UHGV virus genome: UHGV-0096558
Direction: 5' to 3' (one strand)
Source: a virus
Length of the DNA stretch: 54,457 nt
Position 1 is the stretch's first letter. Every line of letters starts with the position of its first letter. Shown in pieces: positions 155 through 44,092 of this stretch. Position numbers and translations under genes: made by a program. A model generated the notes under the pieces. That model was not told the origin of the DNA. It ran no database searches and saw only the letters and a program-made list of their open reading frames with translations.

Positions 155-814
155 TTAATTCCAGTTGCAAGCGTTTTTTACTTTGTCGATGTGGTTATAA
201 AGACCATCAATGTTAAACACTGCTTTCTCAATGTCGCCAGCTTCCGGCACTACTTCAATGATAAATTGTTTTTCGTTAACCAGATTTTTAATCATTGGAA
301 TGGCTTTTTTGCCGTTCCATAATCCAAGAGCTTTATAGTTAGTTGACCGCCCCCATTCAGTGGCTACAGCTTTGTGATCACCGATCCGGTAGTTAATATA
401 AGTAGTGTCCCCGGCGTCAGTTACACGGTGTGACCATGCTACGAACATTTTTGTTTTATTACCCTGGCAAGCAATTGTTAATACCGGTTTATTCTTATCC
501 TGTGCCTTCAGTGCCGGGAAGGCATCAAGACTTCCGCTGAAATGATCTGCTTTCACAAAAAGGAACACGTTTTTTGTGTCCTGCATATCATCTTTTCTTT
601 CGACCACAAGCCACTGTTTACCAGCTTTTTCTTTTGCTAACTGTGCCTCATATGCGGCTTGTTTTGCTTGTTGTTCCGCAAGCCATTTAGCATTTTTCTC
701 AGCCAATGCTTGTTGTTCTTGAGTGGTCACTATAGGCGCTTTTTCATTATCCTCATTGCAACCAACCAGACCCAATACCGCCGCAATCATTGCCACTTTT
801 GCTAACCGTTTCAT
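155..814 (-). CDS. lipoprotein, 219 aa (signal peptide with lipobox LVGC, coiled-coil segment, C-terminal globular domain); cargo gene
   Basis: ORF track; N-terminus MKRLAKVAMIAAVLGLVGC; RBS GGGGTGGG upstream of ATG at 814. Confidence 0.65.
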   Translation of the reverse strand: MKRLAKVAMIAAVLGLVGCNEDNEKAPIVTTQEQQALAEKNAKWLAEQQAKQAAYEAQLAKEKAGKQWLVVERKDDMQDTKNVFLFVKADHFSGSLDAFPALKAQDKNKPVLTIACQGNKTKMFVAWSHRVTDAGDTTYINYRIGDHKAVATEWGRSTNYKALGLWNGKKAIPMIKNLVNEKQFIIEVVPEAGDIEKAVFNIDGLYNHIDKVKNACNWN

Positions 815-826
815 AACCCACCCCGC

Positions 827-916
827 TTAGTTTTTATTTTTAAGTGATTTTAACATTTCTTCAATGAAATCCGCATAGCGTTCATGTTCGTGGGGACGGT
901 AGTTTACGTTTTTCAT
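827..916 (-). CDS. small ORF, 29 aa (MKNVNYRPHEHERYADFIEEMLKSLKNKN)
   Basis: Manual translation; AGAGGA-like RBS 7-12 nt upstream; stop abuts the lipoprotein gene RBS. Confidence 0.3.
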   Translation of the reverse strand: MKNVNYRPHEHERYADFIEEMLKSLKNKN

Positions 917-995
917 TTTCTTGTCCTCTTTTGCTTCCTCCGGTTTATCCGGTCCTTTTAAATCCCTTTACTCTATCCCTTTCCTTTAGCCTCTT

Positions 996-1035
996 TATAC
1001 AAAATGTATTCGTTGAAGTGAAGCCATTTTGTATA
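996..1035. promoter_or_regulatory. inverted pair of 11-bp motif TATACAAAATG (996-1006) and CATTTTGTATA (1025-1035), 18-bp spacer; in divergent region between minus-strand cargo cassette and tape measure gene
   Basis: Read directly; same motif family recurs across the genome. Confidence 0.4.
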
Positions 1036-1074
1036 AAATAGAGACATAGATCACATCTTGTATGAGGTTAAATC

Positions 1075-3417
1075 ATGGCTACCAGTGTAGGTACAATTTA
1101 TTACGAAGTTGACGCGAAAACTGGTCAACTTCTCGTTGCACAACGACAGGCAGACCAGGCCTTTGACCGTATAGAGCGCGGCGCAAAACAGGCTGACCGC
1201 CAGGTAAACACCCTGAAAACATCCATCAAGGCACTGACCAGGGTTATCCATTTGCTAATTGCTGCCGAGGCTGTGCGCCAATTTATGGATATGGCGGAGC
1301 AAGCAAAAATGCTTCGCGTAAAAATCAAAATGCTTACGGGCGATGCGGAGTCCGCCGGACGGGTTTTCGACGGCCTGAAAGCAATATCCAGGGAAACGGG
1401 GCAAAGCCTGAAGGATACTGGCGAACTATGGCAAGGCCTGGCTATCTCACTGAAGAACACGTCCGCTACGGAAGGGCAATTGCTTAACCTGGTTGGTACG
1501 ATTCAGAAAATGGGGGCGTTGGGCGGTGCGTCAGCGGAGCAGATGTCAAACTCAATGCGTCAATTCCGTCAGTCTATCGACGGAGGCGTGCTTCGTGCTG
1601 AAGAATTCAATAGCCTGTTAGAGAACACCCCGACCATCGTACAGACAATGGCCCGCCAGATGGGGTTATCTATGGGCCAATTCCGCGCAGAAATGCTGGA
1701 AGGCAAGATCACGGCTGAAAGGATGGTTAACGCAATCCAGGCGGCTACGCAGGAAACAAACGAGAAGTTTGCGCAGTTGCCGCGCACATCCGGCATGGCC
1801 CTGAATGAGCTTAAAGTCGAGGTTATGGGGCTTGTTGAGCAGTTGGATGATCTTTTCGGTGTATCCGATACGGTTGTCGCTGGTATCGATCTTGTCACGA
1901 AAGGTGTTAAGGCTTTAGGTGAAGGCGCTGATTTCGCTAAAACCTGCTTTAACACACTGAAGACGGCTGGTAGCGAATTTATTGATATATTTGAAGATGT
2001 CGGAATCAAGGCTGGCGAGGTAGCGGAGAAGATCATCGCAATGGTCACGCCAATCAAAGCACTAATGGACGCCTATAAATGGATGAAGGAGGTTGTAGGG
2101 GAACAAACAGACGAATATAACAGCAACTACGAGAAGAAATACGGTAAGACCGTTGGTAAGGTCATGCAATTACAGGATGATCTGACCGCAGCAATCCAGG
2201 CTACAGAGGAAGCAAGGAAAAATGAACAGAATGCCGCCAATGACGGAGCGATTACCGGATTCGACAAGCCAGTAGACAAACCTAAAAAACAGAAAAAAGA
2301 GAAGAAATCAGAAGCTGATCGGCTTGGTGATAAAGGTATAAGCGTTTCTGACCAGTACAACAAAGACGCCGCCGCTATGCGCAAAGCGTTAGAGAACGGC
2401 AAGGCCATTGATGCTGCATTCGCCCAGGGTAAAATCACCCTCCTTGAGTACCGCGCCGCGCAAAAAGGGATAGGCAAGGAACTGAAGGAAGAATTAGCGC
2501 AAATTCCGGTAGAGGAATTGCGTGATAAATGGGCGCAAATAGTAAGCCCGATGGATCAGCTTAAAGGCGAGGTTGACCCTATTCAGCAGGTCCAGAATGA
2601 ATGGGCAGTCCGTAAGCAAATGCTTATCGACCTGGGCGTTACGGAAGCGCAACAGAAACAGGAACTGTTAGCCTATGAGCAGCAGATCCGCGATCTAAAG
2701 TGGGAACAATGGCAGGCGCAAAGCGACACAAACAGTCTGATAGGTTCTTGTGTCAACGGCCTAAAAGGTGGCATGAGTAATGCGCTTGTTGGTCTGTTAA
2801 ACGGTACTCAATCGCTTAGCGATGTATTCGCAAACTTGGGTAGCAATATTCTTGGTTCAGTAGGGAATAAACTTGCGGAAATTGCTGGCGACTGGATAGC
2901 CGATCAGATCATGATGGAGACACAAAGCAAGGCAACGCAGGCAAGTACAACGGCTGGCGCGGTAGCGGCACAAGGCCAGATTGCAGCGGCGGCGGCCCCG
3001 GCAGCGGCGGCAACAGCGGCGTCAACTGGCGGCGCATGGGCGGCGGCTGGTTCGGCGGCACTTACTGCGATCATGTCGCTGGCGGCGTCAATTTTTGGCG
3101 GCGGGCGATTTAATGGTGGTAGCGTCATTGGTGGCAATATGTACCGCGTAGGGGAACACAACAGGCCGGAGCTATTCCAGACGTCTAACGGAAACCAATA
3201 TATGATTCCGGGCGAGAACGGCAGAGTTATCCCTGGTCGTGATATTGGCGGCGGTGGCGGTATCAGTATGCCTGTCAGTATCACCATTCAGACCACAAAC
3301 GGATTTAGCGACGAGGACAGCCGCAGACTTGAGCAAACAATGGAACGTGTAGCAATGAAAATGATAACAAGGGAATCACAAAGACCGGGCGGAATATTGC
3401 AGCCGCGCCGCAAATAA
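1075..3417 (+). CDS. tail tape measure protein, 780 aa
   Basis: Long helical protein with Ala/Gly-rich C-terminal region and a lambda H-like C-terminal motif; lies immediately upstream of M-L-K-I-J homologues. Confidence 0.75.
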   Translation: MATSVGTIYYEVDAKTGQLLVAQRQADQAFDRIERGAKQADRQVNTLKTSIKALTRVIHLLIAAEAVRQFMDMAEQAKMLRVKIKMLTGDAESAGRVFDGLKAISRETGQSLKDTGELWQGLAISLKNTSATEGQLLNLVGTIQKMGALGGASAEQMSNSMRQFRQSIDGGVLRAEEFNSLLENTPTIVQTMARQMGLSMGQFRAEMLEGKITAERMVNAIQAATQETNEKFAQLPRTSGMALNELKVEVMGLVEQLDDLFGVSDTVVAGIDLVTKGVKALGEGADFAKTCFNTLKTAGSEFIDIFEDVGIKAGEVAEKIIAMVTPIKALMDAYKWMKEVVGEQTDEYNSNYEKKYGKTVGKVMQLQDDLTAAIQATEEARKNEQNAANDGAITGFDKPVDKPKKQKKEKKSEADRLGDKGISVSDQYNKDAAAMRKALENGKAIDAAFAQGKITLLEYRAAQKGIGKELKEELAQIPVEELRDKWAQIVSPMDQLKGEVDPIQQVQNEWAVRKQMLIDLGVTEAQQKQELLAYEQQIRDLKWEQWQAQSDTNSLIGSCVNGLKGGMSNALVGLLNGTQSLSDVFANLGSNILGSVGNKLAEIAGDWIADQIMMETQSKATQASTTAGAVAAQGQIAAAAAPAAAATAASTGGAWAAAGSAALTAIMSLAASIFGGGRFNGGSVIGGNMYRVGEHNRPELFQTSNGNQYMIPGENGRVIPGRDIGGGGGISMPVSITIQTTNGFSDEDSRRLEQTMERVAMKMITRESQRPGGILQPRRK

Positions 3418-3420
3418 ACA

Positions 3421-3452
3421 AAAACCCCGGTACAATGCCGGGGTTATCTTTT
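3421..3452. terminator. bidirectional rho-independent terminator (stem CCCCGG / CCGGGG with flanking A- and T-runs)
   Basis: Hairpin at 3425-3443 between convergent genes (tape measure +, 58-aa ORF -). Confidence 0.6.
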
Positions 3453-3627
3453 AGTTATTCTCAAAACTTGTATATCCTCTTTCAATTTTCCCGCCTCTTA
3501 CACTTCTTGCAAATACTGCATCAGCATGTTTGAAAAATGGTTCAGTATATGTGTCTCCTTTACTATCCATCCATTTCACGATCCAGGCTATACGTTTTAC
3601 ATTGCTTTTATTTGCCGGGTTTTTCAT
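3451..3627 (-). CDS. hypothetical protein, 58 aa (MKNPANKSNVKRIAWIVKWMDSKGD...)
   Basis: Manual translation (below ORF-track size cut-off); GGAGG 9-13 nt upstream of ATG at 3627; stop adjacent to terminator. Confidence 0.5.
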   Translation of the reverse strand: MKNPANKSNVKRIAWIVKWMDSKGDTYTEPFFKHADAVFARSVRGGKIERGYTSFENN

Positions 3628-3746
3628 TTTATTTTCCTCCGCAAATTACAATCTTCCGTTTCTGGCTATATAGCTGCGAGAAAACATCACCAACCAAATA
3701 TTCCAGATCTCCCGCCAGGTGAATTTATCGTCCTCCATATCCCGCC

Positions 3747-4001
3747 TCACTTATGCGCCCCTTTAACCCCGCAGTGGCGGTTATATTCCAGATGATCGAT
3801 GATTAACCAGACTTTGAGATCTTCGCTAAACAGCCGCCAGTCAGGGTTAATATCGAATTTAAAACCGTAACCATCGCGTAACTTTTTGGGGCGCGCCTCT
3901 TTCTTCAAAAATGCTTTAAGCAGTTCCTTACCCTTCTTGATAATCCGGTCCTGTGCGTTTTTCTGTACTTTCAGGTTTTTGTCGATCGCTACCAGTTTCA
4001 T
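3747..4001 (-). CDS. hypothetical protein, 84 aa; cargo gene between tape measure and M
   Basis: ORF track; RBS GGGGGTGAG upstream of ATG at 4001. Confidence 0.6.
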   Translation of the reverse strand: MKLVAIDKNLKVQKNAQDRIIKKGKELLKAFLKKEARPKKLRDGYGFKFDINPDWRLFSEDLKVWLIIDHLEYNRHCGVKGAHK

Positions 4002-4020
4002 AGCTCACCCCCGATTATCC

Positions 4021-4176
4021 TTAATTAAGAGCCTTCAGGAAGAAACCACGGTATTCATCTTCTTTTGCATTCATCATGAATTGACCGTATTTGAATGCAT
4101 CGTCGAAACCCTTAACGATTGCTATTTCCACTTGTTCGAATGCGTTGTTTAGCATTACCACTACATAGCGTTTCAT
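4021..4176 (-). CDS. hypothetical protein, 51 aa (MKRYVVVMLNNAFEQVEIAIVKGFDD...)
   Basis: Internal start of ORF 4021..4227 with strong RBS AAGGAGG; 20 nt upstream of next gene in the same cassette. Confidence 0.5.
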   Translation of the reverse strand: MKRYVVVMLNNAFEQVEIAIVKGFDDAFKYGQFMMNAKEDEYRGFFLKALN

Positions 4177-4242
4177 TTTTGGGCCTCCTTCGTTGGTACT
4201 GCTTTTCTTCTTGCTTTCTATATACATCTTGATGCGTGCTAT

Positions 4243-4330
4243 GTGAAGCCATTTTGTAAACTAGCTATAATCATTGTGATGAAGATCTCATTTTTTGCGT
4301 AGAATCGCGTAAAAGTATATACAAAATGTA
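4243..4330. promoter_or_regulatory. divergent control region carrying GTGAAGCCATTTTGTA (4243-4258, identical 16-mer at 1017-1032) and TATACAAAATGTA (4318-4330), then RBS and M start
   Basis: Read directly. Confidence 0.4.
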
Positions 4331-4346
4331 AATTATAGGGGGATTT

Positions 4347-4700
4347 ATGCCTGAAGTGTTCCGATGGACACCACAAAGAAGCTACAGCGTAAACAGTGAG
4401 CCTAACGTGTCTGTCATTAAGCTGGGGGATGGGTGTGAACAGCGCCAGACAAAAGGGATTAACCCTTTACTTGATAGCTACAGCCTGGTTTTTAAAGGCA
4501 CAAGCGCCGGATGCGGTGACGCCGGAAACGTGGCGCTCCAGGTTGACGCATTTTTAAGGGCGCGTTGCGCGGTCGAGGCGTTTTACTGGACTCCATCAAC
4601 TGACGGGGTGCAAAGGCTTTTTGTATGCAGAAAGTGGAGCATGACGAAAGACGGCCCGGTATGCACGCTAAACGCAACTTTTGAGCAAGTTGTCAATTAA
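4347..4700 (+). CDS. M: minor tail protein M-like
   Basis: 117 aa ending ...ATFEQVVN, as recalled for lambda gpM; position upstream of L. Confidence 0.75.
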   Translation: MPEVFRWTPQRSYSVNSEPNVSVIKLGDGCEQRQTKGINPLLDSYSLVFKGTSAGCGDAGNVALQVDAFLRARCAVEAFYWTPSTDGVQRLFVCRKWSMTKDGPVCTLNATFEQVVN

Positions 4701-4713
4701 TGGAGGTGTCAAT

Positions 4714-4899
4714 ATGTATGCTATTTGTGTAGTGGACCGCACGGGCGCTTTTACATTGTTTGACGACTATGAAATTAAAGATCTTACTGTAAAGGCTGAC
4801 AATGGCGAGATCTGGTATCTTCATGATGTTGGTGACGGGTATGTCGGATGCAGATCGAGAGAGGGTAGGGAAGTGTTATTTTTGCTTGATGGCTTATAA
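4714..4899 (+). CDS. hypothetical protein, 61 aa; inserted between M and L
   Basis: ATG at 4714 with RBS GGAGGTG; ORF track 4681..4899. Confidence 0.5.
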   Translation: MYAICVVDRTGAFTLFDDYEIKDLTVKADNGEIWYLHDVGDGYVGCRSREGREVLFLLDGL

Positions 4900-4903
4900 A
4901 CAC

Positions 4904-4927
4904 GACCCCGCGCGAAGCGGGGTTTAT
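4904..4927. terminator. rho-independent terminator-like hairpin (CCCCGC / GCGGGG) followed by TTTAT
   Basis: Between convergent genes 4714..4899 (+) and 5000..5248 (-). Confidence 0.45.
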
Positions 4928-4999
4928 AGTGTCGATAGCAGAATACATAACAATCCAATGATGATAATAATCACTTCCAAAACGTAATTTTCGCACATC

Positions 5000-5248
5000 T
5001 CATAACGCCCCCTTCAAATATGTCAATCCCTTATCAGTGACGAATGAATGATTTACCTGGTTTTCATCCGTCATGATGATGAATAACTTTTCCTGTAGGT
5101 ATTTTGCTTTCGGGTACAGCGTTAAGCAGACCTGGTACAGTATCCCGCGTTCAATCAGTAAATCAATGAATTCATGTTCATGATAACCGACAAGGCGGGC
5201 GGCCTGCTTCAACGTGTACACATAATTACTGTGATTGCGCCGCGCCAT
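5000..5248 (-). CDS. hypothetical protein, 82 aa (possible helix-turn-helix region)
   Basis: ORF track; RBS AAGGCGG upstream; last gene of a 3-gene minus-strand cassette. Confidence 0.55.
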   Translation of the reverse strand: MARRNHSNYVYTLKQAARLVGYHEHEFIDLLIERGILYQVCLTLYPKAKYLQEKLFIIMTDENQVNHSFVTDKGLTYLKGAL

Positions 5249-5257
5249 ATTGCCGCC

Positions 5258-5611
5258 TTATTTATTGAACGCGCCAAGGTTGTCGATACAGAAATCTTTC
5301 GCCGCTTTTTCGTATTCGCGTTTTGCTTCAGGATCATCTGCCGGGAAACCGTGCGCGTGTATTTCCGGGCAAGACTGATCCATAGAATCCGCAAGGTTTT
5401 CTTTAAAGCAAGCGCCGTTATCAATATCGTATTTCATACATTCCACCTTATCCGGTATTTGCACTGGAGTAATTTTGAATTCTCTGGCGCGTCCGAAGAA
5501 TCGAACAAGTTTTTCTCCTTCCTCGACTGCCATTTCGTAACTGTCATGCAAGCCGTAACCTTCCCAATCATCACTACCAGCCATCCAGACATCAAGACGA
5601 TACTTTTGCAT
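5258..5611 (-). CDS. hypothetical protein, 117 aa
   Basis: In-frame internal ATG of ORF 5258..5689 with RBS GAGGG upstream; acidic protein. Confidence 0.5.
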   Translation of the reverse strand: MQKYRLDVWMAGSDDWEGYGLHDSYEMAVEEGEKLVRFFGRAREFKITPVQIPDKVECMKYDIDNGACFKENLADSMDQSCPEIHAHGFPADDPEAKREYEKAAKDFCIDNLGAFNK

Positions 5612-5615
5612 TTTG

Positions 5616-5780
5616 CTAACCCTCATATTTGACAGGTTTGATCTGGTATCCCAAAACGCGGTCATCCTCCGAAAGTTCAAGCGCATCAATCAGCGCTTCC
5701 CCCTCGTCGTCATACAGAGCGATAACCTTTTCCCTCCCGTCAGTCATGAACACCGTCAACTTCCATAGCTTTTCAGTCAT
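5616..5780 (-). CDS. hypothetical protein, 54 aa (MTEKLWKLTVFMTDGREKVIALYDDEGE...)
   Basis: Internal start of ORF 5616..5900 with GGAGG 6 nt upstream; first gene of cassette. Confidence 0.4.
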   Translation of the reverse strand: MTEKLWKLTVFMTDGREKVIALYDDEGEALIDALELSEDDRVLGYQIKPVKYEG

Positions 5781-5909
5781 CATGCACCTCCGCGCCATTT
5801 TGTTAACTATGCTTCCGTTTGAGTAAAATATACATATTGTAAAAACCGCGATCAATCCATTTTGGTATGATTTAGCGTGACGCAGATCACAAAATGACAA
5901 GGTGAGAAA

Positions 5910-6614
5910 ATGCGCAATATTCCGAGAGAGATGATTATTGATTCCGTCGATGCCGGAGTCGGCGCGGTCATCGACTTATTTGAACTGGACCTGACCCCAC
6001 TTGGCGGCGAGGTTGTCCGCTTCCATTCCGGCGCTAATGGCTATTACGGGAATGTTATCTGGAAGGGTATCGCTTACAACAGCTACCCGATCGAAGTTAG
6101 CGGCTTCGAAATGAAAAACGAGGGGGTATACGCGCGGCCTCAAATGGCAGTAGCCAACATCGGCGGCCTTATTACCGGAATGAATAACGACTTTAACGAC
6201 CTTCGCGGAATGAAAGTTACCCGCCGCCAGGTGGAGGTTAAATACCTGGACGCTGTTAACTTCCCTAACGGCAATCCAGATGCAGATCCTTCTATTGAGG
6301 CGGTATCTGTTTACGTTGTCGAGGCAATGAGTGAAGAAACGGCGGAGCAAGTACAGTACGAACTATCAACGCCAGTAGACGCAGACAAGGCTGTTATACC
6401 TGGGCGCACCATCCTTGCTGACGTTTGCCAGTGGCAATATCGCGGAGACGGTTGCGGATATAGCGGCGGCCCGGTAGCGACTGATAAAGATGCGCCGACC
6501 AGTGATCCAACATTGGATAAATGCAGCCACCGCCTCAGCGGTTGTCGCTTGCGCTTCCCGCGCCCGAATCCGTTACCAATTTCATGTTTCCCCGGATCAA
6601 GCAAGGTGGGCTAA
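5910..6614 (+). CDS. L: minor tail protein L
   Basis: Recognisable similarity to lambda gpL (EIDLT..GGE, ...RRKV..R.LDAVNF.NGN..ADP..., ...W.YRGD.CGYSG..., DKCS..LSGC). Confidence 0.9.
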   Translation: MRNIPREMIIDSVDAGVGAVIDLFELDLTPLGGEVVRFHSGANGYYGNVIWKGIAYNSYPIEVSGFEMKNEGVYARPQMAVANIGGLITGMNNDFNDLRGMKVTRRQVEVKYLDAVNFPNGNPDADPSIEAVSVYVVEAMSEETAEQVQYELSTPVDADKAVIPGRTILADVCQWQYRGDGCGYSGGPVATDKDAPTSDPTLDKCSHRLSGCRLRFPRPNPLPISCFPGSSKVG

Positions 6615-6616
6615 TT

Positions 6617-7348
6617 ATGGCACTTGAAGACAAAATGGTTCGTTATGCCGCCGCTCACCCTCGCGAGGAAGTTTGCGGACTGGTGATAGATAACGATTAT
6701 TTTTACCCGTGCTTAAACATGTCTGAAACGCCCTACAACAGCTTTAAAATTTCGCCGGACGATTACATCAAGGCTGACGAATTGGGCGTCATAACCGCCG
6801 TTTTCCACTCTCACGTTGAAGATATTCCGGTATTGTCGGCGCTGGATCGACAACAACAGGTTATTTCCGGCCTTCCGTGGTTTTTATGTTCCGGTGGCAG
6901 GGTTAGAAAATTCCGCCCGGTAGCGCACCTGTTAGGCCGAAAATTTGAGCACGGAAAAACAGACTGCTACGCGCTTTTCCGGGACGCCTATCACCTTTGC
7001 GGCGTGGATCTGCCGGACTTCGAGCGCCTTGATGGGTGGTGGTTGCATGGTGAAAACCTGTATTTAAAAAACTTGCCGCTAAACGGGTTTTATCAGGTTG
7101 ACGCGCAAAGCATCCAGCCTGGTGACGTGATTATTCGCCAGCCGTTCAAGGGTGCTGATCCATGTCACGCGATGATTTACCTGGGTGATAACACTGTTTT
7201 GCATCATGACAATGCCGGACTGTTAAGTCGCCGCGAGCAGATGCGGCCCGCTTATGTTCGACAAACGCATTCAATATGGAGATCTGACAAATGCTCAAAT
7301 TTAGATTTACGGGCAATCTTCGAAGATATTACGGCAAAGTGTGTTTAA
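6617..7348 (+). CDS. K: tail assembly protein K (MPN/JAB plus NlpC/P60-like domains)
   Basis: ATG at 6617 (MALEDKMVRY...) just after L stop; HSH..D motif and NlpC/P60-like Cys/His region; lambda gpK-like. Confidence 0.85.
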   Translation: MALEDKMVRYAAAHPREEVCGLVIDNDYFYPCLNMSETPYNSFKISPDDYIKADELGVITAVFHSHVEDIPVLSALDRQQQVISGLPWFLCSGGRVRKFRPVAHLLGRKFEHGKTDCYALFRDAYHLCGVDLPDFERLDGWWLHGENLYLKNLPLNGFYQVDAQSIQPGDVIIRQPFKGADPCHAMIYLGDNTVLHHDNAGLLSRREQMRPAYVRQTHSIWRSDKCSNLDLRAIFEDITAKCV

Positions 7349-7821
7349 ACGTTGATACGCCAGCGCAAGGACTTCGCTTATTGACTGCGCAGAATCAGGA
7401 ATTCAAAAAAGCGTTTTTAAACACACCATCACGATTACGGATTGCGGGAAAGGATTATAACGAAAAAACAGCGCCCGCTGCGGTTAATAGCAAATACCCG
7501 GACGGGACCACTGTAATTATTGCGCCAGTAGTGGAAGGTGGGATCGCTGGTATCGGTGTAATTGGCTGGATCATGATTGGTATTTCAGTAGTTAGCGTTG
7601 CGTTTTCCCTCTTTATGTCTCGCAACATGAAGGTAAAAACATCAGCAGAAAGCGCACAGGATAACACCATAACGAATAACACCTACACCAGCGTTGAAAA
7701 CAAGGTAGGCCAGGGTAGACCAGTGCCAATCCTGTTAGGTGAAATGAAAATAGGTTCGAATGTAGGATCGCTTGGTATCGACACAAGCAACAACAAAGAC
7801 GCTCTGGACGTTGTAAGTTAA
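7291..7821 (+). CDS. I: tail assembly protein I
   Basis: Lambda gpI-like; Gly-rich hydrophobic segment then ...ILLGEMKIGS...; overlaps K 3' end. Confidence 0.8.
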   Translation: MLKFRFTGNLRRYYGKVCLNVDTPAQGLRLLTAQNQEFKKAFLNTPSRLRIAGKDYNEKTAPAAVNSKYPDGTTVIIAPVVEGGIAGIGVIGWIMIGISVVSVAFSLFMSRNMKVKTSAESAQDNTITNNTYTSVENKVGQGRPVPILLGEMKIGSNVGSLGIDTSNNKDALDVVS

Positions 7822-7835
7822 TAAAGGGGGTTACT

Positions 7836-10800
7836 ATGGGCGGCGGTGGTGGTAAAGCAAAAACACCAGTTTTATTAAACGATAACTTGTATCATAAGCA
7901 GTTTTATCGCGTCCTGGATATCCTGTCAGAAGGGCCGATTTATGGCCCTGTCAATCAGGCGGCACCGTTAAACTGCGTAATGCTTAATGATACGCCTATA
8001 ACTGACACCGTGGGTAACGCAAGTATCCCCGGCGTTAGTATTGCGTGGCGTCCTGGTAGTCTCGACCAGTCTCCAATCAATGGATTTAACTCCATTGAAT
8101 CGACTGTAATGGTCAATGCACAGGTTAAGCACGATACGCCGATTATACGCACAGTATCAGACAGAAATGTCAATCGTGTACGTCTTAATATTGGCGTTGA
8201 TTCTCTGGTATCGAGCGACAACCAGGGGAACCAGTACGAAACATCCGTACATTTAGCTATAGATATTAAACCTTCATCATCATCGTCATGGACTATAGTT
8301 AAAGATGTAATTATCGGACCGGGTAAAATTAGCGGGGAATACCTTGAATCACACATCATTGATGCGCCGAGTGAGTACCCTTTCGATATTCGCGTTCGCA
8401 GAATTACGGCAGATAGCACCAGCGATCTACTTCAAAACGACACACGCTGGAATAGCTACAGCGAGATCATAGATGACAACCTGTCATATCCTCACACGGC
8501 GGTAGCTGGCTGTGTTATTGATCACGATCAGTATACTGATACACCGACCCGCGCTTATCATCTTCGCGGGCTGATTGTTGACGTGCCGGACAACTATAAC
8601 CCTGAAGCGCGCACGTATTCCGGTTTATGGCTTGGTGGATTTAAAAAGGCGTACACCAATAACCCTGCTTGGCTTTTCCGGTATTTGATTAAAAATGAAC
8701 GCTTTGGCCTTGCACGACAGGCTGGTTATATTGACGTTGATGACGGCGCTTTATACGTGCTTTCTCAATACTGCGACCAGTTGGTTGATGATGGCTACGG
8801 CGGCCTTGAGCCTCGCATGACGCTTAACGCTTACATCACAGAGCAAATGAGCGCCCGCGACTTACTTGATAATATAGCTGGCATGTTCCGTGGTATTGCG
8901 TTATGGGACGGGCAACGTCTTACAGTGATGATTGATGCGCCACAAGATCCGATTGCAACTATCACGAACGCAAATGTCGTAGATGGTGCATTCACCCGTT
9001 CGAGCCTTGCCCGCGCGGAGTGCTATAACGCCGTGATTGTATCCTGGACCGATCCGGGTAACGGTTGGGAACAGTCAAAAGAATACGTTTCTGACGATGA
9101 ACTAATCGCCCGCGACGGCTACAACGAAACCACACTGGAGGCGTTCGGGTGCACGTCTCGCGGACAGGCTTACCGCGCTGGTAAATGGCTAATCGAAACA
9201 GCAAAACGCGAGCCGTCGAAATTTACGTTTAAAATGGCCCGTGACGCCATTCACTTTACACCAGGTGATATCATTGAGATCCTCGACAATAACCGCGCGG
9301 GCGCTCGCTTAGGCGGTCGTATCGTGGCGAACAATGGCAAAGTGATAACGGTCGACAAGGTTGATTCTGAATATATCGCGGCTGGTGACACCATCAGCTT
9401 ACTTGATAGCGATGGTAAATTTAAAAAACACCAGATCACCGGAGTTAACGGAAACAATATTACCCTTGCTGCGGCCCCGGCATGGATTCGCAATGGCACT
9501 GTTTTTGCTGTATCGACTGAAGCAGCAAAACCCGTTTTATGTAGGATCACCAGCGTAGCAGAAACAGAAAATAACAGCGTATACACTATCGAAGCCGCAC
9601 AGCACGACCCTAACAAACAGGCCGTAGTTGATGAAGGCGCAGTCTTCGAAATCAACAACGACACGCTGAATCATTTCCGTGTGCCTAACATTGAAAACCT
9701 CAAGGTAATGAATGTTGGTTCCGAAACCGTTCAGTGCTCCGCGTCGTGGATGACGCAGACCACAACTCACCGTCTGACCTTTGAATTACGTGTTTATAAC
9801 GAAGACAGCAAAGTTGTCGCCAGTTATGAGACGACAGAATTCCGGTATGATTTTAATGGCCTGAATTGCGGTCAATACTCTTTAGGCGTTCGCGCCCGCA
9901 ATGATACCGGTATGAAAGGCGCGGAATCTATCGTTGATCTCGTTATTGGTGCACCTTCAAAACCAATTGGTGTTAACTGGATACCAGGCGTATTTCAGGC
10001 TACTGTGTACCCAATCAGCAAAACAACTCTGACCAGCGATACAAGCTATGAATTCTATTTTGCTGGCGAAACACAAATCACTAATCCGGCATTAGTCACC
10101 ACTAATGCACAATATACCGGACGTGGTTATCAGTGGACGTTCGGCGGAATGAACACGGGCCATACTTATTACGTTTATGTGCGCACGCGTAACGCTTTTG
10201 GTGTATCAGATTTCGTAGAGGCGTCAGGTAAACCAACAGAGGATTTCGATGAAATCAGCGATTACGTAACCAAAGACGTGATGAATTCTGACCAATTTAA
10301 AGGAATGGTTAGCGACATTAAAGATCTTGGCGACCGCACCGACCTTATCGAAAGCGCCACTGACGACCTTAAAACAGCCACTGATAATCTTACCAATATC
10401 ACAAACGGCCTAAGAACTGATACTGACGACCTTATTGCAGAAACAGGGTCAATAAAAGCTGACACAGATACGCTTAAAAAAGACACGGAAGATCTTTATA
10501 AAAAAGTTCAGGAAAACGCCGATGATATCGGACAGCATGAGGTAAGAATTGACTCATTAGAGGTATCAAGTGAAAAAACCGACAGCGAACTGGCGCAGGC
10601 AAAAGCAAGCCTACAAAACGCATCGCTTGCCCTTATTAATAACTCGCTTGCACAGACTAACACCCGCGTAACTCTTACCGCTCAGTACAAGAAAGGTAAA
10701 ACAGAGACGAAAGCGGAAATTGACCGTATTGACAACGTTATCGCTGAAGAGAAAAAAGCGACTGCGGAATCACTGGAAACCATCACGGCAGAGATGAACA

Positions 10801-22500: not shown

Positions 22501-23016
22501 TTATATGCTTCTTCTACCATGTCGAATACTTCCGGCCTGTAATAGAAAAAACTCATTACTACCATCAAATTTTACAGGGAAGTTAATTTTATAATTGCTA
22601 AAAGCCTTATGCATCGTGCTTTCTAATTCATGGATATTTTCAGTTGGCCCTTCTAACGTTTTCACGATATGCAAATCAGGAATTCTAACACCTGCTTTAT
22701 GTGCGCTTTTTAATATTTCATTTCTTCGCTCGTTCTCCTTAACGCTTACACCAATTTTCATTTGTGTAGGCACTTCCAGATCGTCAGTCATGATGTAAAG
22801 TTTACCGCGCTCATGACGAAGAAAGCCGTATTTTGCGCATTTTGGACAGCCGTCGCCGCGCTTAAGGTTGTGGGGTGTACACATCCTTTTATGGCCACAA
22901 ACTCTGCAGCGGCATAATACTTTTGTTTTGCTATTAATAATTTTCCCCAGCACTTCAACATCAGGATTAACTTTCGCAATAGCGGCAACATGTTCCTCAT
23001 GTGTTAACTTACACAT
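22501..23016 (-). CDS. T5orf172 / GIY-YIG-like domain protein with N-terminal zinc ribbon (CRCRVCGH...CPKC)
   Basis: Cys4 cluster and ...LYIMTDD...KIGVS...ENERRNEI... pattern. Confidence 0.45.
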   Translation of the reverse strand: MCKLTHEEHVAAIAKVNPDVEVLGKIINSKTKVLCRCRVCGHKRMCTPHNLKRGDGCPKCAKYGFLRHERGKLYIMTDDLEVPTQMKIGVSVKENERRNEILKSAHKAGVRIPDLHIVKTLEGPTENIHELESTMHKAFSNYKINFPVKFDGSNEFFLLQAGSIRHGRRSI

Positions 23017-23156
23017 CGATCCAACTCCTTAAAACACCTCAGACGCGCTACAACGCAAAATTCCACCGCGTAACCCATTTGCACAGGTTGCAGTGTCTTA
23101 TTGCGTCAGAGGCGCTATCAGGTGGCTAATTTTCGATTTACAGACTGGTAGGTAGG

Positions 23157-23258
23157 TTATGGATTGACTAGAAGGAACAAACCGCCGAACAAGGCGACGT
23201 TAACTGCGATAGCCGCAGCGATGGCAAAAGCCAGGGCGAACATGCGTTTACCGTCCAT
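23157..23258 (-). CDS. possible small hydrophobic peptide, 33 aa (MDGKRMFALAFAIAAAIAVNVALFGGLFLLVNP)
   Basis: Manual translation; GAGAGG 9 nt upstream; single predicted TM helix. Confidence 0.3.
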   Translation of the reverse strand: MDGKRMFALAFAIAAAIAVNVALFGGLFLLVNP

Positions 23259-23391
23259 TTTAAAATCCTCTCTGAATAGTTCTCTGACGAGCTAATCGCA
23301 AAAAGGTAAGCAAGTGTAGCACCCAATGCGATTTAGCTCGCTGGTGAGATTGTTTTGTGGGTAATTTTGGATTTTTGCGGATCGTTGTTGG

Positions 23392-24390
23392 TCAAAGAGC
23401 GCCCGCGCGAGTATCACGTAGCGTTTTTGGTTTAAGCAGGAAATCAAGTGTCGCAGTGAAGCCATTGCCGAAGTAAAAATCTGAAGCCGTGTTTTTGAAC
23501 GTTTCGAAGTAGGCGACAAAGCCGTTAATGCTTTTGTCTTTCAGGTAGTCAGTGAACGCATAGATCTTGCGTTCAAGATCCCGATCCAGTTCGGCAGGTG
23601 GTAACAGGCCGTCAAACGTGCTGTTAAATGCTTCCACCACGTCGGCAGCGTTTACAGTAGATGATAGCTTGCGCCATTGTTCAGCATCAGCCAAATACCC
23701 ATCGAATTTAGTTACCCGGCAAATGTTAACAGGCTTAGGCACTCCACCACGGCTACGCCATTGCGTCAAAGCCCATTCGATTACTAATGTGATCTCATCC
23801 TCCGTGTATGCCTTACGTGTTTTTGTTTCTGTCAGTAGTTCGATAAATGGCTTAGCATCACGACATTTGCATCCTGCTTTTTCGTTGTAGAAGGCTAAGC
23901 AACGGTAAGCAGCCGCGCTTATCTGAAAGTCACCGTCCTGATTGACATGTTTTTCTCCCAGGGGGATATAAGGGGGTATATCTTTATTTAGATTCTCTTT
24001 ACTGGTTATATATGACTGATTAGGGTTGCTCTCTGCCACTACCCCAGGTTGCTTTGTGCCACTACCCTGGTTGCTCTCTGCCACTACCCCCGGTTGCTTT
24101 GTGCCACTACCTGACAGTGAAGGTAAAACGATTACATAGAAATTGCTCGTTTGTTCTTTCCCGCCGATTAAATAGCGAGGCTGTTTTAGTAACAAGCCTT
24201 TTTTGCAAAGCGCCTCAATTGCTCGCATTGCTGTACTTTTATTTATTTCGCATTGCTTCGCTATGTGCTGGTAAGAAGGGTAACACTCGCCGTTATCGTT
24301 AGCGTTATCAGCCAACTTTAACAGTACAAGTTTGTGCATTGGATTACCGACCTCAGTATGAAACACTTCGACCATTAGCCGCATACTCAT
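23392..24390 (-). CDS. replication initiator, lambda O-like (winged-helix N-terminus), contains iterons
   Basis: N-terminal HKLVLLKLADNANDNGECYPSYQHIAKQCEINKSTAMRAIEALCKKGLL; strong RBS AGGAGG; internal 22-bp direct repeats. Confidence 0.7.
   Translation of the reverse strand: MSMRLMVEVFHTEVGNPMHKLVLLKLADNANDNGECYPSYQHIAKQCEINKSTAMRAIEALCKKGLLLKQPRYLIGGKEQTSNFYVIVLPSLSGSGTKQPGVVAESNQGSGTKQPGVVAESNPNQSYITSKENLNKDIPPYIPLGEKHVNQDGDFQISAAAYRCLAFYNEKAGCKCRDAKPFIELLTETKTRKAYTEDEITLVIEWALTQWRSRGGVPKPVNICRVTKFDGYLADAEQWRKLSSTVNAADVVEAFNSTFDGLLPPAELDRDLERKIYAFTDYLKDKSINGFVAYFETFKNTASDFYFGNGFTATLDFLLKPKTLRDTRAGAL
24024..24113. repeat. four tandem 22-bp iteron-like repeats (GGTTGCTCTCTGCCACTACCCC / GGTTGCTTTGTGCCACTACCCT alternating) inside the initiator gene; candidate origin of replication
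   Basis: Read directly; encodes duplicated peptide SGSGTKQPGVVAESN. Confidence 0.6.
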
Positions 24391-41397: not shown

Positions 41398-41598
41398 ATG
41401 TTCGACAAAATACGGGAGGCGTGCGCGTATGTGACCGGGGCCGTAACTGCTTTTTTCGGCGCGATAACCATCAATGACATTGCCGTCTTTGTGGGTATCT
41501 TATCAACCGTAGGCACATTTGCCGTTAACTATTACTTCAAATCACAGGAGAACAAACGAGCGCAAGAGGAACACGACGCGCGAATGGGGAATAAGTAA
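41398..41598 (+). CDS. holin, small two-TM, pinholin-like
   Basis: 66 aa, two hydrophobic helices, charged C-terminus; immediately upstream of SAR endolysin. Confidence 0.7.
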
Positions 41599-41599
41599 C

Positions 41600-42091
41600 A
41601 TGATTAGCCAATCGCTGAAGAATAAAATTATTGCTGCGGCGGCTGGTGGGGCGATCGCTATTGCGGCTGTGATGGTTAAACCATTAGAAGGCGTGGAGTA
41701 CGATCCGTATCGTGATGTTATCGGTGTATGGACTGTTTGCTATGGTCATACCGGGAAAGACATCATGCTGGGTAAGACTTACACGCAATCAGAATGCGAT
41801 GCATTGTTAAATAAAGACCTGCACAAAACCGCAAAAGCGATCGATCCTTATATTAAAGTCGAAATATCAGATTTTACCCGCGCGGCGCTTTATTCATTCG
41901 CCTATAACGTAGGCGCTACCAACTTCAAAACATCAACATTATTAAAACTACTCAATGACGGCAAGAAATCAGAAGCGTGCGCACAGCTTAAACGCTGGAT
42001 TTATGCTGGTGGTAAACAGTGGCAAGGTTTAATCAACCGCCGTGATGTTGAATATGCCGTTTGCGAATGGGGGGAAACGTGGACAAGGTGA
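41600..42091 (+). CDS. SAR endolysin (lysozyme with N-terminal signal-anchor-release helix)
   Basis: N-terminal Gly/Ala-rich TM ([17 protein letters not shown]), then E..(8)..D..(5)..T catalytic pattern ([22 protein letters not shown]). Confidence 0.8.
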
Positions 42092-42549
42092 AGGCGTTAA
42101 TCATCGCCGCTATCGTTTGTGTCGTTGTTGGGCTTGTTGCCGCGCTTAGTCACTGTCAGTCAGTGATAAACACAATGCAAAGCGAGCTAACTACTACGCA
42201 GGGCGCACTAAAAACAGCAAGTAACACTATTCAGCAGATGAAGGAGCGAAACGCCGAACTGTCAAAACTTGATAAGAGGTATCACGATGAAATTAAAGCT
42301 ATCAGATCTGACATTGCTGATCTGCGTGCTGGTATTGATAGCGGTGCTATCCGGTTGCACGTCAACGCAATACCAGTGCGAGTGTCAGACGCCACCGGAA
42401 CCGCCAGCAGCATTGATGGAGCCGCCTGTAGACTCACTCCCGACGCTGAATCGGCTTATCTATCCCTCAGAGAACAACTAAAAGAGAAAGACGCGAAGAT
42501 CACCGGATTGCAGGACTACATCAAGACGCAGTGCATACGCAAAGAATAA
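42082..42549 (+). CDS. i-spanin (Rz-like)
   Basis: N-terminal TM then coiled coil; GTG at 42082 with RBS GGGGGG (alternative ATG at 42067); overlaps endolysin stop. Confidence 0.65.
42287..42481 (+). CDS. o-spanin (Rz1-like outer-membrane lipoprotein) embedded in the i-spanin gene in another frame
   Basis: Signal peptide with lipobox LSGC, Pro-rich mature region; entirely inside the Rz-like gene. Confidence 0.65.
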   Translation: MKLKLSDLTLLICVLVLIAVLSGCTSTQYQCECQTPPEPPAALMEPPVDSLPTLNRLIYPSENN

Positions 42550-42886
42550 CAGCGCGTGGACGTGTCGCCGTTTCCGCCAGCCAGCCATAACCGGGCCAAT
42601 CCTTCCCGCGAGCGACGGCGGAAAAGTCAAAAACACGTAATACCGGATCAACAGTCCCATTAACAGGTCGGCGCTACCTGGGTAGAAGAAAGCGCCATTC
42701 ACTCACCTGCCACGCGTAGGACGAGCGCCCGGATCTGTTTATCAGAGATGTTAAGCAGGTCCAGTTTTATAAAATTCTGCAAACGGTACTCACTAAGCGC
42801 CGTTTTCAGTGTTTTATATCTGTTTTCACTCCCTGCGGTGTCGAGTTTTGCGGGGGTTATATTTTTCAGAATAGGAGATTATTCTG

Positions 42887-43429
42887 ATGGCTAAGGCTAA
42901 AGGCATTAAGTTGCCTCAATTCAAGATCCCACTCTTTGAGCATACAACCGTTTTCTTTTGCCCGACCCGCGAGATGTTTTATGAATTTTGCGAAAAGGCA
43001 GGAATTCCAATTGAACCTGATTTCGAACTGGCGGGAGGATTGACGCTTACTTGCACTGGTGAGAAAGGCGGTAACTTCTACGTGATCGCAGTATTCGACA
43101 ATGAGTTAGGAACACTGGTCCATGAATGCGCTCACACCACATTCCATGTTTTAAGTGATGTAGGCGTCGTGGCGACCACTGATCCAACTCATCCGGCGAA
43201 TGAGACTTACGCTTACATGGTAGGCCGCATCTTTGATGCATTTTTCCCTATACTGGCTGAATCAAACGAAGCACAGGTTGCAGCAATGCAGGCGGCTGAA
43301 GTCGTCGAGCAGGCATTAGAACAGGCAGAACAGCCGAAGGAAGAAGAAAAACCCGCGAAGAAAGGCAAACGTAAGCCGAAATCAAAAGAAGCGTATGTAC
43401 CGCGCGTAATGAGCTTTAAACGAGGCTGA
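42887..43429 (+). CDS. hypothetical protein with HExxH motif (HECAH); possible zinc-metallopeptidase-like protein with basic Lys-rich C-terminus
   Basis: ORF track; RBS AGGAGA; HECAHTTFH at residues about 78-86. Confidence 0.55.
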   Translation: MAKAKGIKLPQFKIPLFEHTTVFFCPTREMFYEFCEKAGIPIEPDFELAGGLTLTCTGEKGGNFYVIAVFDNELGTLVHECAHTTFHVLSDVGVVATTDPTHPANETYAYMVGRIFDAFFPILAESNEAQVAAMQAAEVVEQALEQAEQPKEEEKPAKKGKRKPKSKEAYVPRVMSFKRG

Positions 43430-43431
43430 TT

Positions 43432-43527
43432 ATGGATGAGCGCATCATCGCAGGATTAATCGGTATTTCTGTATTTCTGGTGGGTTTTATTATCGCCGTA
43501 CTGATAACCGTAAAAAGCAAGTATTAG
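43432..43527 (+). CDS. mini-ORF 1 of tandem array: 31-aa single-TM peptide (MDERIIAGLIGISVFLVGFIIAVLITVKSKY)
   Basis: Manual translation; RBS GAGG 6 nt upstream. Confidence 0.45.
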   Translation: MDERIIAGLIGISVFLVGFIIAVLITVKSKY

Positions 43528-43540
43528 ATGGGGTGGCAAG

Positions 43541-43615
43541 ATGGTTGACCCGCTAATTATCCTTTCTGCCTGCGTCGCTGTATGGCTGGCGATCATGATA
43601 TTCATTGAAAGCTGA
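43541..43615 (+). CDS. mini-ORF 2: 24-aa hydrophobic peptide (MVDPLIILSACVAVWLAIMIFIES)
   Basis: Manual translation; G-rich RBS. Confidence 0.4.
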   Translation: MVDPLIILSACVAVWLAIMIFIES

Positions 43616-43626
43616 AGGTATTCACC

Positions 43627-43701
43627 ATGAATATTTACGATCTCATCTGGTGGTCGTTGGTCGCCGTCATTATCTATTTCTGGTGGAAGAATGTTGTATA
43701 G
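43627..43701 (+). CDS. mini-ORF 3: 24-aa hydrophobic peptide (MNIYDLIWWSLVAVIIYFWWKNVV)
   Basis: Manual translation; RBS GAAGG 8 nt upstream. Confidence 0.4.
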   Translation: MNIYDLIWWSLVAVIIYFWWKNVV

Positions 43702-43709
43702 GTGAAAGC

Positions 43710-43790
43710 ATGAACGCATACGAAATGCTATTGCTGGTGGCTGTAGTTGTAGTCATTGCCGTAGATGTTTATCGGGAGTTTAAAAAATGA
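43710..43790 (+). CDS. mini-ORF 4: 26-aa hydrophobic peptide (MNAYEMLLLVAVVVVIAVDVYREFKK)
   Basis: Manual translation; RBS AGGTGA. Confidence 0.4.
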   Translation: MNAYEMLLLVAVVVVIAVDVYREFKK

Positions 43791-43855
43791 AATGGCTTGA
43801 TTTCCTTTTCCTGATCGTTGCGATTGTTCTTACCATGACCGCGCTGACTCAATAG
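43787..43855 (+). CDS. mini-ORF 5: 22-aa hydrophobic peptide (MKWLDFLFLIVAIVLTMTALTQ)
   Basis: Manual translation; ATGA start/stop overlap with mini-ORF 4. Confidence 0.4.
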   Translation: MKWLDFLFLIVAIVLTMTALTQ

Positions 43856-43863
43856 GTGAGCAA

Positions 43864-43938
43864 ATGGATGTTATCGAAGCCGTATTATTCGTATGTATCG
43901 CCGCGTTAATTATTGTTGGAGTGATTATCAATGTCTGA
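43864..43938 (+). CDS. mini-ORF 6: 24-aa hydrophobic peptide (MDVIEAVLFVCIAALIIVGVIINV)
   Basis: Manual translation; RBS AGGTGAG. Confidence 0.4.
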   Translation: MDVIEAVLFVCIAALIIVGVIINV

Positions 43939-43999
43939 TGGTGATTTCTTATTCATGGCTTTATGTACGCTGTTAATCGTTATTGTTTTCTTCGCATAA
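43931..43999 (+). CDS. mini-ORF 7: 22-aa hydrophobic peptide (MSDGDFLFMALCTLLIVIVFFA)
   Basis: Manual translation; overlaps mini-ORF 6 stop. Confidence 0.4.
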   Translation: MSDGDFLFMALCTLLIVIVFFA

Positions 44000-44008
44000 G
44001 GGTAAACA

Positions 44009-44092
44009 ATGAAAGAGCTATTCGACTGGTTGGAAGTATTAACATACTGCGCAAGTTTTGTTGCTTGCGTATATATCATCAATAAATATTGA
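44009..44092 (+). CDS. mini-ORF 8: 27-aa hydrophobic peptide (MKELFDWLEVLTYCASFVACVYIINKY)
   Basis: Manual translation; RBS AAGGG; ends 10 nt before terminase small subunit gene. Confidence 0.4.
   Translation: MKELFDWLEVLTYCASFVACVYIINKY

Follow-up and report, generated by a model that had tools for sequence, protein, structure and literature searches.

A phage-restricted family of small proteins with a predicted zincin-type metallopeptidase fold, and its member between the lysis and packaging genes of an mEp021-group phage

Here we describe a gene of the virus genome UHGV-0096558, analysed as one strand of 54,457 nucleotides (hereafter, the window), which lies between the lysis cassette and the packaging genes and encodes a protein of 180 amino acids (aa) with an HExxH motif. 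We propose that its product is a soluble, stand-alone minimal zincin of the gluzincin type, that is, a zinc metallopeptidase in which one zinc ion would be held by H79 and H83 of the active-site helix and by E106 of the helix after it, with E80 activating the water molecule that cuts the peptide bond and the edge of a small beta-sheet binding the substrate chain. The likeliest role of such an enzyme would be that of an accessory, host-directed protease cutting a specific host immunity or regulatory protein. The parts of this proposal do not stand on equal ground. A zincin-type metal site and fold are very probable, and an active peptidase is probable; the host-directed accessory role, with a host target that we infer, is put forward tentatively. 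Taken as a whole, an accessory, host-directed zincin peptidase is the best overall explanation, to which we would give slightly less than even weight. The gene and its parts are located as follows.

42887..43429, plus strand: complete coding sequence of the HExxH protein, 180 aa and a stop codon, with an ATG start, taken from the open reading frame (ORF) list and the raw sequence
42887..43261, plus strand: predicted zincin-like catalytic domain, aa 1-125, with predicted elements as far as the Glu helix, which begins at 104
43121..43135, plus strand: HECAH (H79, E80, H83), residues 79-83, the two predicted zinc ligands and the predicted general-base Glu
43199..43204, plus strand: N105-E106 ('NETY') at the N-terminus of the second C-terminal helix, with E106 23 residues past H83
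43262..43330, plus strand: acidic, Ala/Gln/Glu-rich helical linker, aa 126-148, net charge -5
43331..43426, plus strand: basic tail, aa 149-180, net charge +8, predicted to be disordered

HExxH occurs once in the window proteome (about 82 non-overlapping ORFs, 16,270 aa) versus 0.43 occurrences expected by composition, so the motif alone is not beyond chance. It is the invariance across homologs, not mere occurrence, that makes it meaningful at the level of sequence. An alignment of 147 homologs with 20-40% identity to the query has four invariant columns and no more, namely H79, E80, H83 and E106. HExxH is kept in 128 of 130 diverse full-length representatives, all 128 of them having a Glu 15-30 residues downstream; one of the two exceptions is apparently frameshifted and the other has HKAAH. 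The zincin core consists of an HExxH helix and a third-ligand Glu on the next helix, about 20-30 residues further on (PMC5512222). By this definition E106 is the predicted third zinc ligand, and the four invariant residues read as the gluzincin set, with two His and one Glu as ligands and the other Glu as general base. This is a real gene, subject to strong purifying selection: across 34 distinct alleles, the ratio of nonsynonymous to synonymous substitution rates (dN/dS) was lowest in the domain (0.058), followed by the last 30 codons (0.089) and the acidic linker (0.116).

An AlphaFold2 model of the domain, built on the 147-sequence alignment, reached a mean predicted local distance difference test score (pLDDT) of 92.9 and a predicted template modelling score (pTM) of 0.88. 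It runs through beta 11-13, beta 21-25, helix 28-38, helix 44-48, beta 51-57 and beta 63-69 to the helix 74-91, which bears HExxH, and then to the helix 104-134, which opens at N105-E106. As modelled, this order of sheet, HExxH helix and Glu helix matches the zincin core set out in PMC5512222. When the family profile was compared with PDB sequences, nine weak matches were obtained (E-values 0.03-0.9), and all nine are zinc endopeptidases; the top printed alignments, to three myroilysin entries, span the sheet region and the HExxH helix, with HEFGH sitting on the family HExxH. A Foldseek search of BFVD gave 24 matches at E ≤ 1e-3, all of them small proteins of very diverse phages, the sources including Erwinia, Pseudomonas, Salmonella, Achromobacter, Ralstonia, Acinetobacter, crAss-like and Eggerthella phages; a protein of Mycobacterium phage Weirdo19 matched weakly (E = 3.7e-2). 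The names carried by the named BFVD matches are solely 'SprT-like family protein', 'Metalloprotease' and 'SprT'. Scores of the fold matches are modest. The best structural match was M3 oligopeptidase A (PDB 4KA8), a two-domain enzyme of 695 aa with 11% identity, which has only the core in common with the protein described here.

An earlier note, made from the letters of the window, had pointed to a 180-aa protein with HECAH and a Lys-rich basic tail in the interval between lysis and packaging genes, and had taken the motif as a possible mark of a zincin-type metallopeptidase. Protein, motif and place were borne out, and the tail is real and conserved. The zincin interpretation also stood, backed by the invariant HExxH and Glu, the zincin order of the model, the zinc endopeptidases matched in the PDB and the SprT-like and metalloprotease names in BFVD; the outcome that the note had named as refuting, a predicted structure with the motif outside a metallopeptidase fold, was not seen. 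Of the profile and structure searches that the note had proposed, none led to a curated protease family.

Identity of the window region to Escherichia phage MagusPhagus is 95.6%, and to phages mEp010, mEp554, mEp044 and mEp021 it is 88-91%. The window phage therefore belongs to the mEp021 (mEpimmI) group, whose members are Nus-dependent yet non-lambdoid according to their describers (PMC11893012). The suggestion of the same note that the gene occupies a cargo hotspot of lambdoid phages does not fit this placement, and within the group the gene is not sporadic cargo, being carried by seven of seven mEp-like phage records and by 46 related viral contigs. Its orthologs mEp021_49 (AXN54168.1) and MagusPhagus CDS0060 are both labelled 'hypothetical protein'. 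The gene was also found, again as a hypothetical protein, in 32 of 5,426 complete E. coli genomes, where it is chromosomal in every case, as expected of a prophage gene. Mass spectrometry of mEp021 virions detected 16 proteins, the HExxH protein not among them; all but two of the 16 come from the structural cluster, and the genes of those two lie upstream of the lysis genes (PMC11893012). The supplements of the same paper (PMC11893012) do not mention the gene.

Beyond its own group, the window protein matched phrog_1365, a profile annotated as of unknown function, with E = 3.3e-31 (residues 1-131 against profile positions 3-124 of 127). Using tblastn on phage records, we found homologs of its first ~125 residues, 35-45% identical, in P22-like phages, among them ST64T orf-129, epsilon34 gp70, g341c 66 and hkcC of HK620/P22. 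A profile search of 1.84 billion representative proteins gathered 937 clusters at E ≤ 1e-3 and 255 at E ≤ 1e-10. Family members are nearly all 115-140 aa long, and the best 150 of the ~937 representatives, ranging from 67 to 216 aa, are stand-alone proteins with no second domain. The family is restricted to phages and prophages, and spans phages of E. coli, Salmonella and many other Enterobacterales; five of the eight plasmid matches were non-mobilizable, phage-sized records of 30-41 kb, the rest including a chromosome-sized record and larger plasmids.

Among named protease families, the SprT-like proteins are an obvious comparison, since E. coli SprT/YggI, human Spartan and yeast Wss1, which are DNA-dependent metalloproteases, are small HExxH zincins like the window protein. 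The basic tail of the window protein could act like a DNA-binding region. Of the curated families, none but the SprT-like Pfam family PF10263 recurs among members: it was matched by 15 members in a set of 30 and by 48 in a set of 147, never at the gathering threshold (lowest E 1e-4), and the window protein itself had no match to it at E up to 10. In Spartan/Wss1-type enzymes the third zinc ligand is a His, unlike the Glu on the next helix predicted for the window protein. The zinc ribbon carried by SprT homologs (PF17283) was not matched either, and the window protein has no Cys cluster. SprT-like proteins are widespread in mycobacteriophages (PMC12363180).

The arrangement of the predicted domain also recalls that of MPTase-PolyVal, the metallopeptidase domain of phage polyvalent proteins. 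We take MPTase-PolyVal to be Pfam PF18818. Both it and, as modelled, the present family have HExxH on the first C-terminal helix and the third-ligand Glu on the second, a small sheet and an N-terminal helix. Phages carry both, and each keeps company with ParB-domain genes and with late or structural genes. The homolog P0118 goes by the name 'PolyVal Metallopeptidase' in one database source. However, the MPTase-PolyVal profile did not match the window protein and was not listed among the families for the 30 or the 147 members. Furthermore, MPTase-PolyVal is a domain of giant multidomain proteins, whereas proteins of this family, among the best 150 of the ~937 representatives, stand alone at about 120-190 aa. 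The minimal zincin Acel_2062 (PDB 3E11, 114 aa) shows no sequence relationship to the family and, unlike zincins of its type, the family is phage-specific, some of its members having a coiled, basic tail. Minigluzincins are further minimal stand-alone zincins. ImmA/IrrE (M78) and CapP, which are regulatory proteases found in defence systems and mobile elements, gave no significant hidden Markov model (HMM) match to the family, Peptidase_M78 (PF06114) appearing in one of 30 members only, with E 0.1; moreover, the gene here lies in what is probably a late operon and no repressor gene is adjacent. A weak NCBIfam match linked the window protein to an HExxH-type peptide hydroxylase (E 0.37). Polyvalent proteins are delivered with the DNA, whereas the mEp021 ortholog was not detected in virions (PMC11893012). 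Overall, we would class the family as a separate, uncharacterised branch among the zincin-like peptidases. Zincin-like peptidases of phages are already known (PMC5512222), and this large family is new within them and has no curated model.

The C-terminal part of the protein deserves separate consideration. Its last 32 residues, QPKEEEKPAKKGKRKPKSKEAYVPRVMSFKRG, contain 12 Lys or Arg versus 4 Asp or Glu and have an isoelectric point (pI) of 10.4, and the catalytic domain itself is acidic (pI 5.0). Among alleles the linker varies in length by in-frame indels of +3, +4, +10 or +14 aa of EQA-type sequence, and the tail end block KKGKRKPKxKEAxVPRVMSFKRG is almost fixed. In a full-length AlphaFold model the last helix reaches residue 148 and the tail has a pLDDT of 51-64. 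P0241, a relative of ~50% identity, retains the ending ...EYVPRIARYKRG; the much more distant long forms P0294, P0323 and P0342 likewise close with a Lys/Arg patch behind a charged helical spacer, and a further distant long form, P0259, has a similar Lys-rich charged C-terminal extension. The tail is under purifying selection (dN/dS 0.09). In phages of the mEp021 type, this combination of a variable acidic helical spacer and a Lys/Arg tail is most likely a conserved functional add-on, most simply a tether of the enzyme to nucleic acid or to a partner.

We then looked at the company that the gene keeps. In the window, genes for holin, endolysin and Rz/Rz1 (41398-42549) lie upstream of it, and those for the small and large terminase subunits (terS, 44103; terL, 44585) and the portal (46127) lie downstream. 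A scan of viral contigs with a degenerate DNA pattern yielded 108 further loci in 17 clusters, for which three genes on either side were surveyed; the only functions recurring in these 17 contexts were the terminase large subunit (TerL), the portal and an Rz-like spanin. In other enterobacterial phages the family gene stands 0-2 genes before several unrelated types of terminase small subunit (TerS). Of ~14 independent contexts, about half are situated shortly before terminase or portal genes, a share that we estimate to be far above random gene placement. Two contexts are in early regions. Partnership with a specific terminase type is not supported, given the several unrelated TerS types found downstream, and persistence of the position beside them suggests a positional slot.

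In P22-like phages the family occupies two moron sites. The post-lysis site is represented by ST64T, in which orf-129 sits between Rz and gp3, and the other by HK620/P22, in which hkcC follows the ejection gene 16 and stands beside sieA/hkcB in the immI 'ant moron'. In published descriptions hkcC is given as a gene of unknown function (PMC2629481; PMC4837284). The ~41-kb P22-like genomes ST-87, ST-35, ST160, UAB_Phi20, SE1 and SW-70 have two diverged copies each: the one behind the lysis genes is of the orf-129 type (~45% identity to the window protein), and the one in the immI region is of the hkcC type (~35% identity to the same protein). Such pairing of diverged copies suggests diversified specificities. 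In locus L098 (IMGVR_UViG_2627853839_000001, 562-8441), the zincin gene has on one side the gene for an internal virion protein of 1157 aa that contains a transglycosylase domain, and on the other those for the portal and TerL, an arrangement that parallels hkcC after gene 16 in HK620/P22.

Three distant long-form contexts, L004 (3528-7486), L005 (3085-7460) and L090 (622-2637), share a conserved cluster in the order ParB_N, (ParB_N), a phrog_293 'ABC transporter'-like ATPase, the long-form zincin and a phrog_886 ATPase, with the ATPase stop overlapping the zincin start. In L005 a thioredoxin gene and a Tad2-like gene are inserted directly before the zincin gene, and TerL and portal follow downstream; in L004 and L090 the contig stops short of any packaging genes. 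Counting L091, ParB_N neighbours were present in four contexts. In L006, a contig of a metagenomic phage, a gene of the Acb2/Tad1-hairpin type (an anti-CBASS/anti-Thoeris sponge; 3877-4155) lies three genes upstream of a 216-aa family member.

Two further observations concern the immediate neighbours of the P22-like homologs. The gene directly after the ST64T homolog, orf-134 (L002, 3390-3794), matches phrog_3018, a 'head decoration protein', with E = 9e-59, and its last ~40 residues are common to tail-fibre PHROGs. In the table for UAB_Phi20 (PMC4837284), sieA is placed at 22696-23406 on the minus strand and hkcC at 23221-23586 on the plus strand, with an overlap of ~186 bp at the 5' part of sieA, whereas the HK620 neighbours hkcB and hkcC do not overlap.

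Three lines of evidence lead us to favour, tentatively, an accessory role directed at the host: the moron-like distribution of the family and its duplication in P22-like phages, the occasional anti-defence neighbours (Tad2-like and Acb2/Tad1-type, once each), and the absence of the protein from the mEp021 virion proteome (PMC11893012). A virion-morphogenesis enzyme is less likely than this. A prohead protease or a lysis function is not supported, given the lack of a family match, the wrong position and the absence from the virion proteome; the analysis turned up no link between the gene and lysis timing or virion maturation.

A number of observations nevertheless weigh against a host-directed zincin peptidase and should be considered together. 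Neither single-sequence nor profile searches gave a significant match in Pfam, NCBIfam, PADLOC or PDB sequences, and membership in SprT itself was rejected, since hhalign against E. coli-type SprT gave a probability of 8% with the active site outside the aligned stretch, the SprT alignment used being shallow (74-88% identity). The literature on hkcC, mEp021, MPTase-PolyVal and phage zincins in anti-defence offered no functional data. In the mEp group itself, the gene has the look of a core gene and not of an accessory one. Most members of the family have no basic tail, so that a DNA tether cannot be its general mechanism. Guilt by association with anti-defence genes finds no support, such neighbours being seen in two of ~14 contexts and none being recurrent in the 17-context census. 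Finally, proximity to terminase and portal genes is the strongest contextual signal of all, and it could equally mean a role linked to packaging or to the virion.

Keeping the host-directed zincin in mind, it is tempting to go one step further and regard the family as a protease-type weapon of tailed phages for counter-defence or takeover, a late-made minimal zincin that destroys a host protein. The enzyme of the mEp021 type would then be steered by its tail to DNA, or co-packaged on it; its target would be, for example, a nuclease bound to DNA or an immune sensor triggered by late proteins such as terminase or portal, and the diverged paralogs of P22-like phages would differ in target specificity. 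We regard this extension as unlikely. The PADLOC-DB profiles of anti-phage defence and anti-defence matched neither the window protein nor ST64T orf-129 nor HK620 hkcC. The anti-defence neighbours that were seen (Tad2-like, Acb2/Tad1) belong to sponge-type families, none of them a protease; as proteolytic anti-defence enzymes of phages are, to our knowledge, rare, a widespread one would, if the extension is true, be a new functional class.

The ParB neighbours, the packaging-proximal position and the adjacency to ejection proteins keep two rival explanations alive. One is a late protease tied to packaging, whose tail would bind phage DNA while the protease clears it of host nucleoid or immune proteins, or of phage replication proteins, before or during packaging, by a logic like that of SprT, Spartan and Wss1. 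That about half of the independent contexts have TerS, TerL or portal downstream with at most four genes in between, the TerS types being non-homologous, agrees with such a role, as do the neighbours of ParB_N type (DNA-binding/nuclease) in four contexts, the PAKKGKRKPK-type sequence of a Lys/Arg tail under purifying selection, and the weak SprT-like signals among BFVD names and sub-threshold Pfam matches. However, the short forms, which are the majority, lack the basic tail and the domain is acidic (pI 5.0), specific homology to SprT is missing, the slot persists beside unrelated TerS types, and the gene is dispensable or duplicated among P22-like phages; a minor share of our confidence goes to this explanation. 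The other is a packaged and injected effector, a solo zincin of the polyvalent type present in low copy in the capsid, perhaps riding on the DNA via its tail, which, as infection of the next host begins, would either process ejection proteins or cleave defence proteins of that host. Zincin metallopeptidases are the commonest domain of injected polyvalent proteins, and solo forms of other polyvalent-protein domains (LPDs) occur beside structural genes (PMC5512222); the label of P0118, the place of the HK620/P22 copy right after ejection gene 16 (PMC4837284), the L098 gene between the internal virion transglycosylase protein and the portal, and an association of ParB with a metallopeptidase that echoes P1 DdrB point the same way, and late expression would fit. 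Against this stand the 16 proteins of the mEp021 virion, which do not include the HExxH protein (PMC11893012), the lack of a recurrent Pfam MPTase-PolyVal match, the best 150 of ~937 representatives, all stand-alone and at most 216 aa long, and the contexts in early regions. On balance we consider injection improbable.

Two more distant explanations bear on what the predicted active site would do. ImmA/IrrE proteases have HExxH and a downstream Glu, as does this family, and a regulatory protease of their kind might cut a repressor or antirepressor-type regulator of its own phage or of a resident prophage. This shared arrangement and the location of the P22/HK620 copy within the immI (ant/mnt/arc) region (PMC2629481) speak for it. 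We nevertheless find it highly improbable, as the M78 signal is confined to that one member in 30, the window gene is in a late region with no repressor adjacent, and no helix-turn-helix partner gene recurs in the 17-context census. Alternatively, the His/Glu site might bind a metal for a structural purpose or for another kind of catalysis, the tail mediating binding of nucleic acid or protein. Here, the modest scores of the fold matches, the strong conservation of the tail and the NCBIfam peptide hydroxylase match (E 0.37), which shows that HExxH is not exclusive to peptidases, must be set against an E80 that is invariant together with three ligands, a pattern expected for catalysis over a structural metal, and against the many members, the majority, that have no tail; a non-protease appears distinctly improbable.

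Whichever of these explanations prevails, small zincin-like proteins are common in phage genomes, and no experiment on any of them was found in the literature. Were a substrate identified, a large part of phage 'dark matter' would gain a function, and phages might turn out to manipulate their hosts or evade immunity by proteolysis; if the family has only a housekeeping accessory role, the gain would be a modest one in annotation. P22 and HK620 (hkcC), ST64T (orf-129) and mEp021 offer tractable model hosts for the family.

As for expression of the gene, the following elements were recognised just upstream of it.

42874..42877, plus strand: Shine-Dalgarno sequence GGAG, 9 nt 5' of the ATG, read off the sequence
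42827..42866, plus strand: G+C-rich hairpin CCCUGCGG...UUGCGGGG followed by a U-rich run UUAUAUUUUU, intrinsic-terminator-like, between the lysis cassette and the HExxH gene
42770-42816, plus strand: additional hairpin between Rz and the HExxH gene, 5' of the terminator-like one, found by folding

Strand folding of the hairpin pair at 42770-42866 gave a minimum free energy of -28.9 kcal/mol (z = -3.0), and a simple consensus terminator scan did not flag this region. In the mEp021 record a terminator is annotated between the lysis gene and gene 49. A promoter scan of the region found no sigma-70-like promoter near the HExxH gene, which gives no support to moron-style expression from a sigma-70 promoter of its own. 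Since such a promoter is lacking and the gene follows terminator-like hairpins between the lysis cassette and terS, it is probably late, transcribed together with the late genes by an antiterminated polymerase. Further upstream, the Rz-like spanin gene (42061-42549, plus strand) contains an out-of-frame ORF at 42269-42481 for a lipoprotein-like Rz1 with the lipobox LSGC, and Rz/Rz1 of the window is an ordinary two-component spanin arrangement.

It is also worth mentioning what lies between the zincin gene and terS. Within the 670 bp that separate the two genes, positions 43432-44092 of the plus strand hold a head-to-tail array of 7-8 mini-genes of 22-31 codons each, the first of which has its ATG 3 nt past the zincin stop codon. 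Each would encode a peptide with a short polar or acidic N-terminus and one hydrophobic, transmembrane-like segment, as in MDERIIAGLIGISVFLVGFIIAVLITVKSKY, MNAYEMLLLVAVVVVIAVDVYREFKK and MKELFDWLEVLTYCASFVACVYIINKY. No comparable ORFs were found on the minus strand of the interval, and the peptides had no PHROG match. The array is conserved among mEp-like contigs. The distance from the zincin gene to terS was 318-1154 bp across ~44 mEp-like contigs measured, and six mEp-like intervals examined contained 6-10 cassettes each, varying among phages by presence or absence. A link between the zincin and the array is not supported, the array being confined to the mEp group and absent from the other lineages. 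Roles in lysis timing, exclusion or toxicity are possible for the mini-peptides, and the array may be more unusual than the zincin finding.

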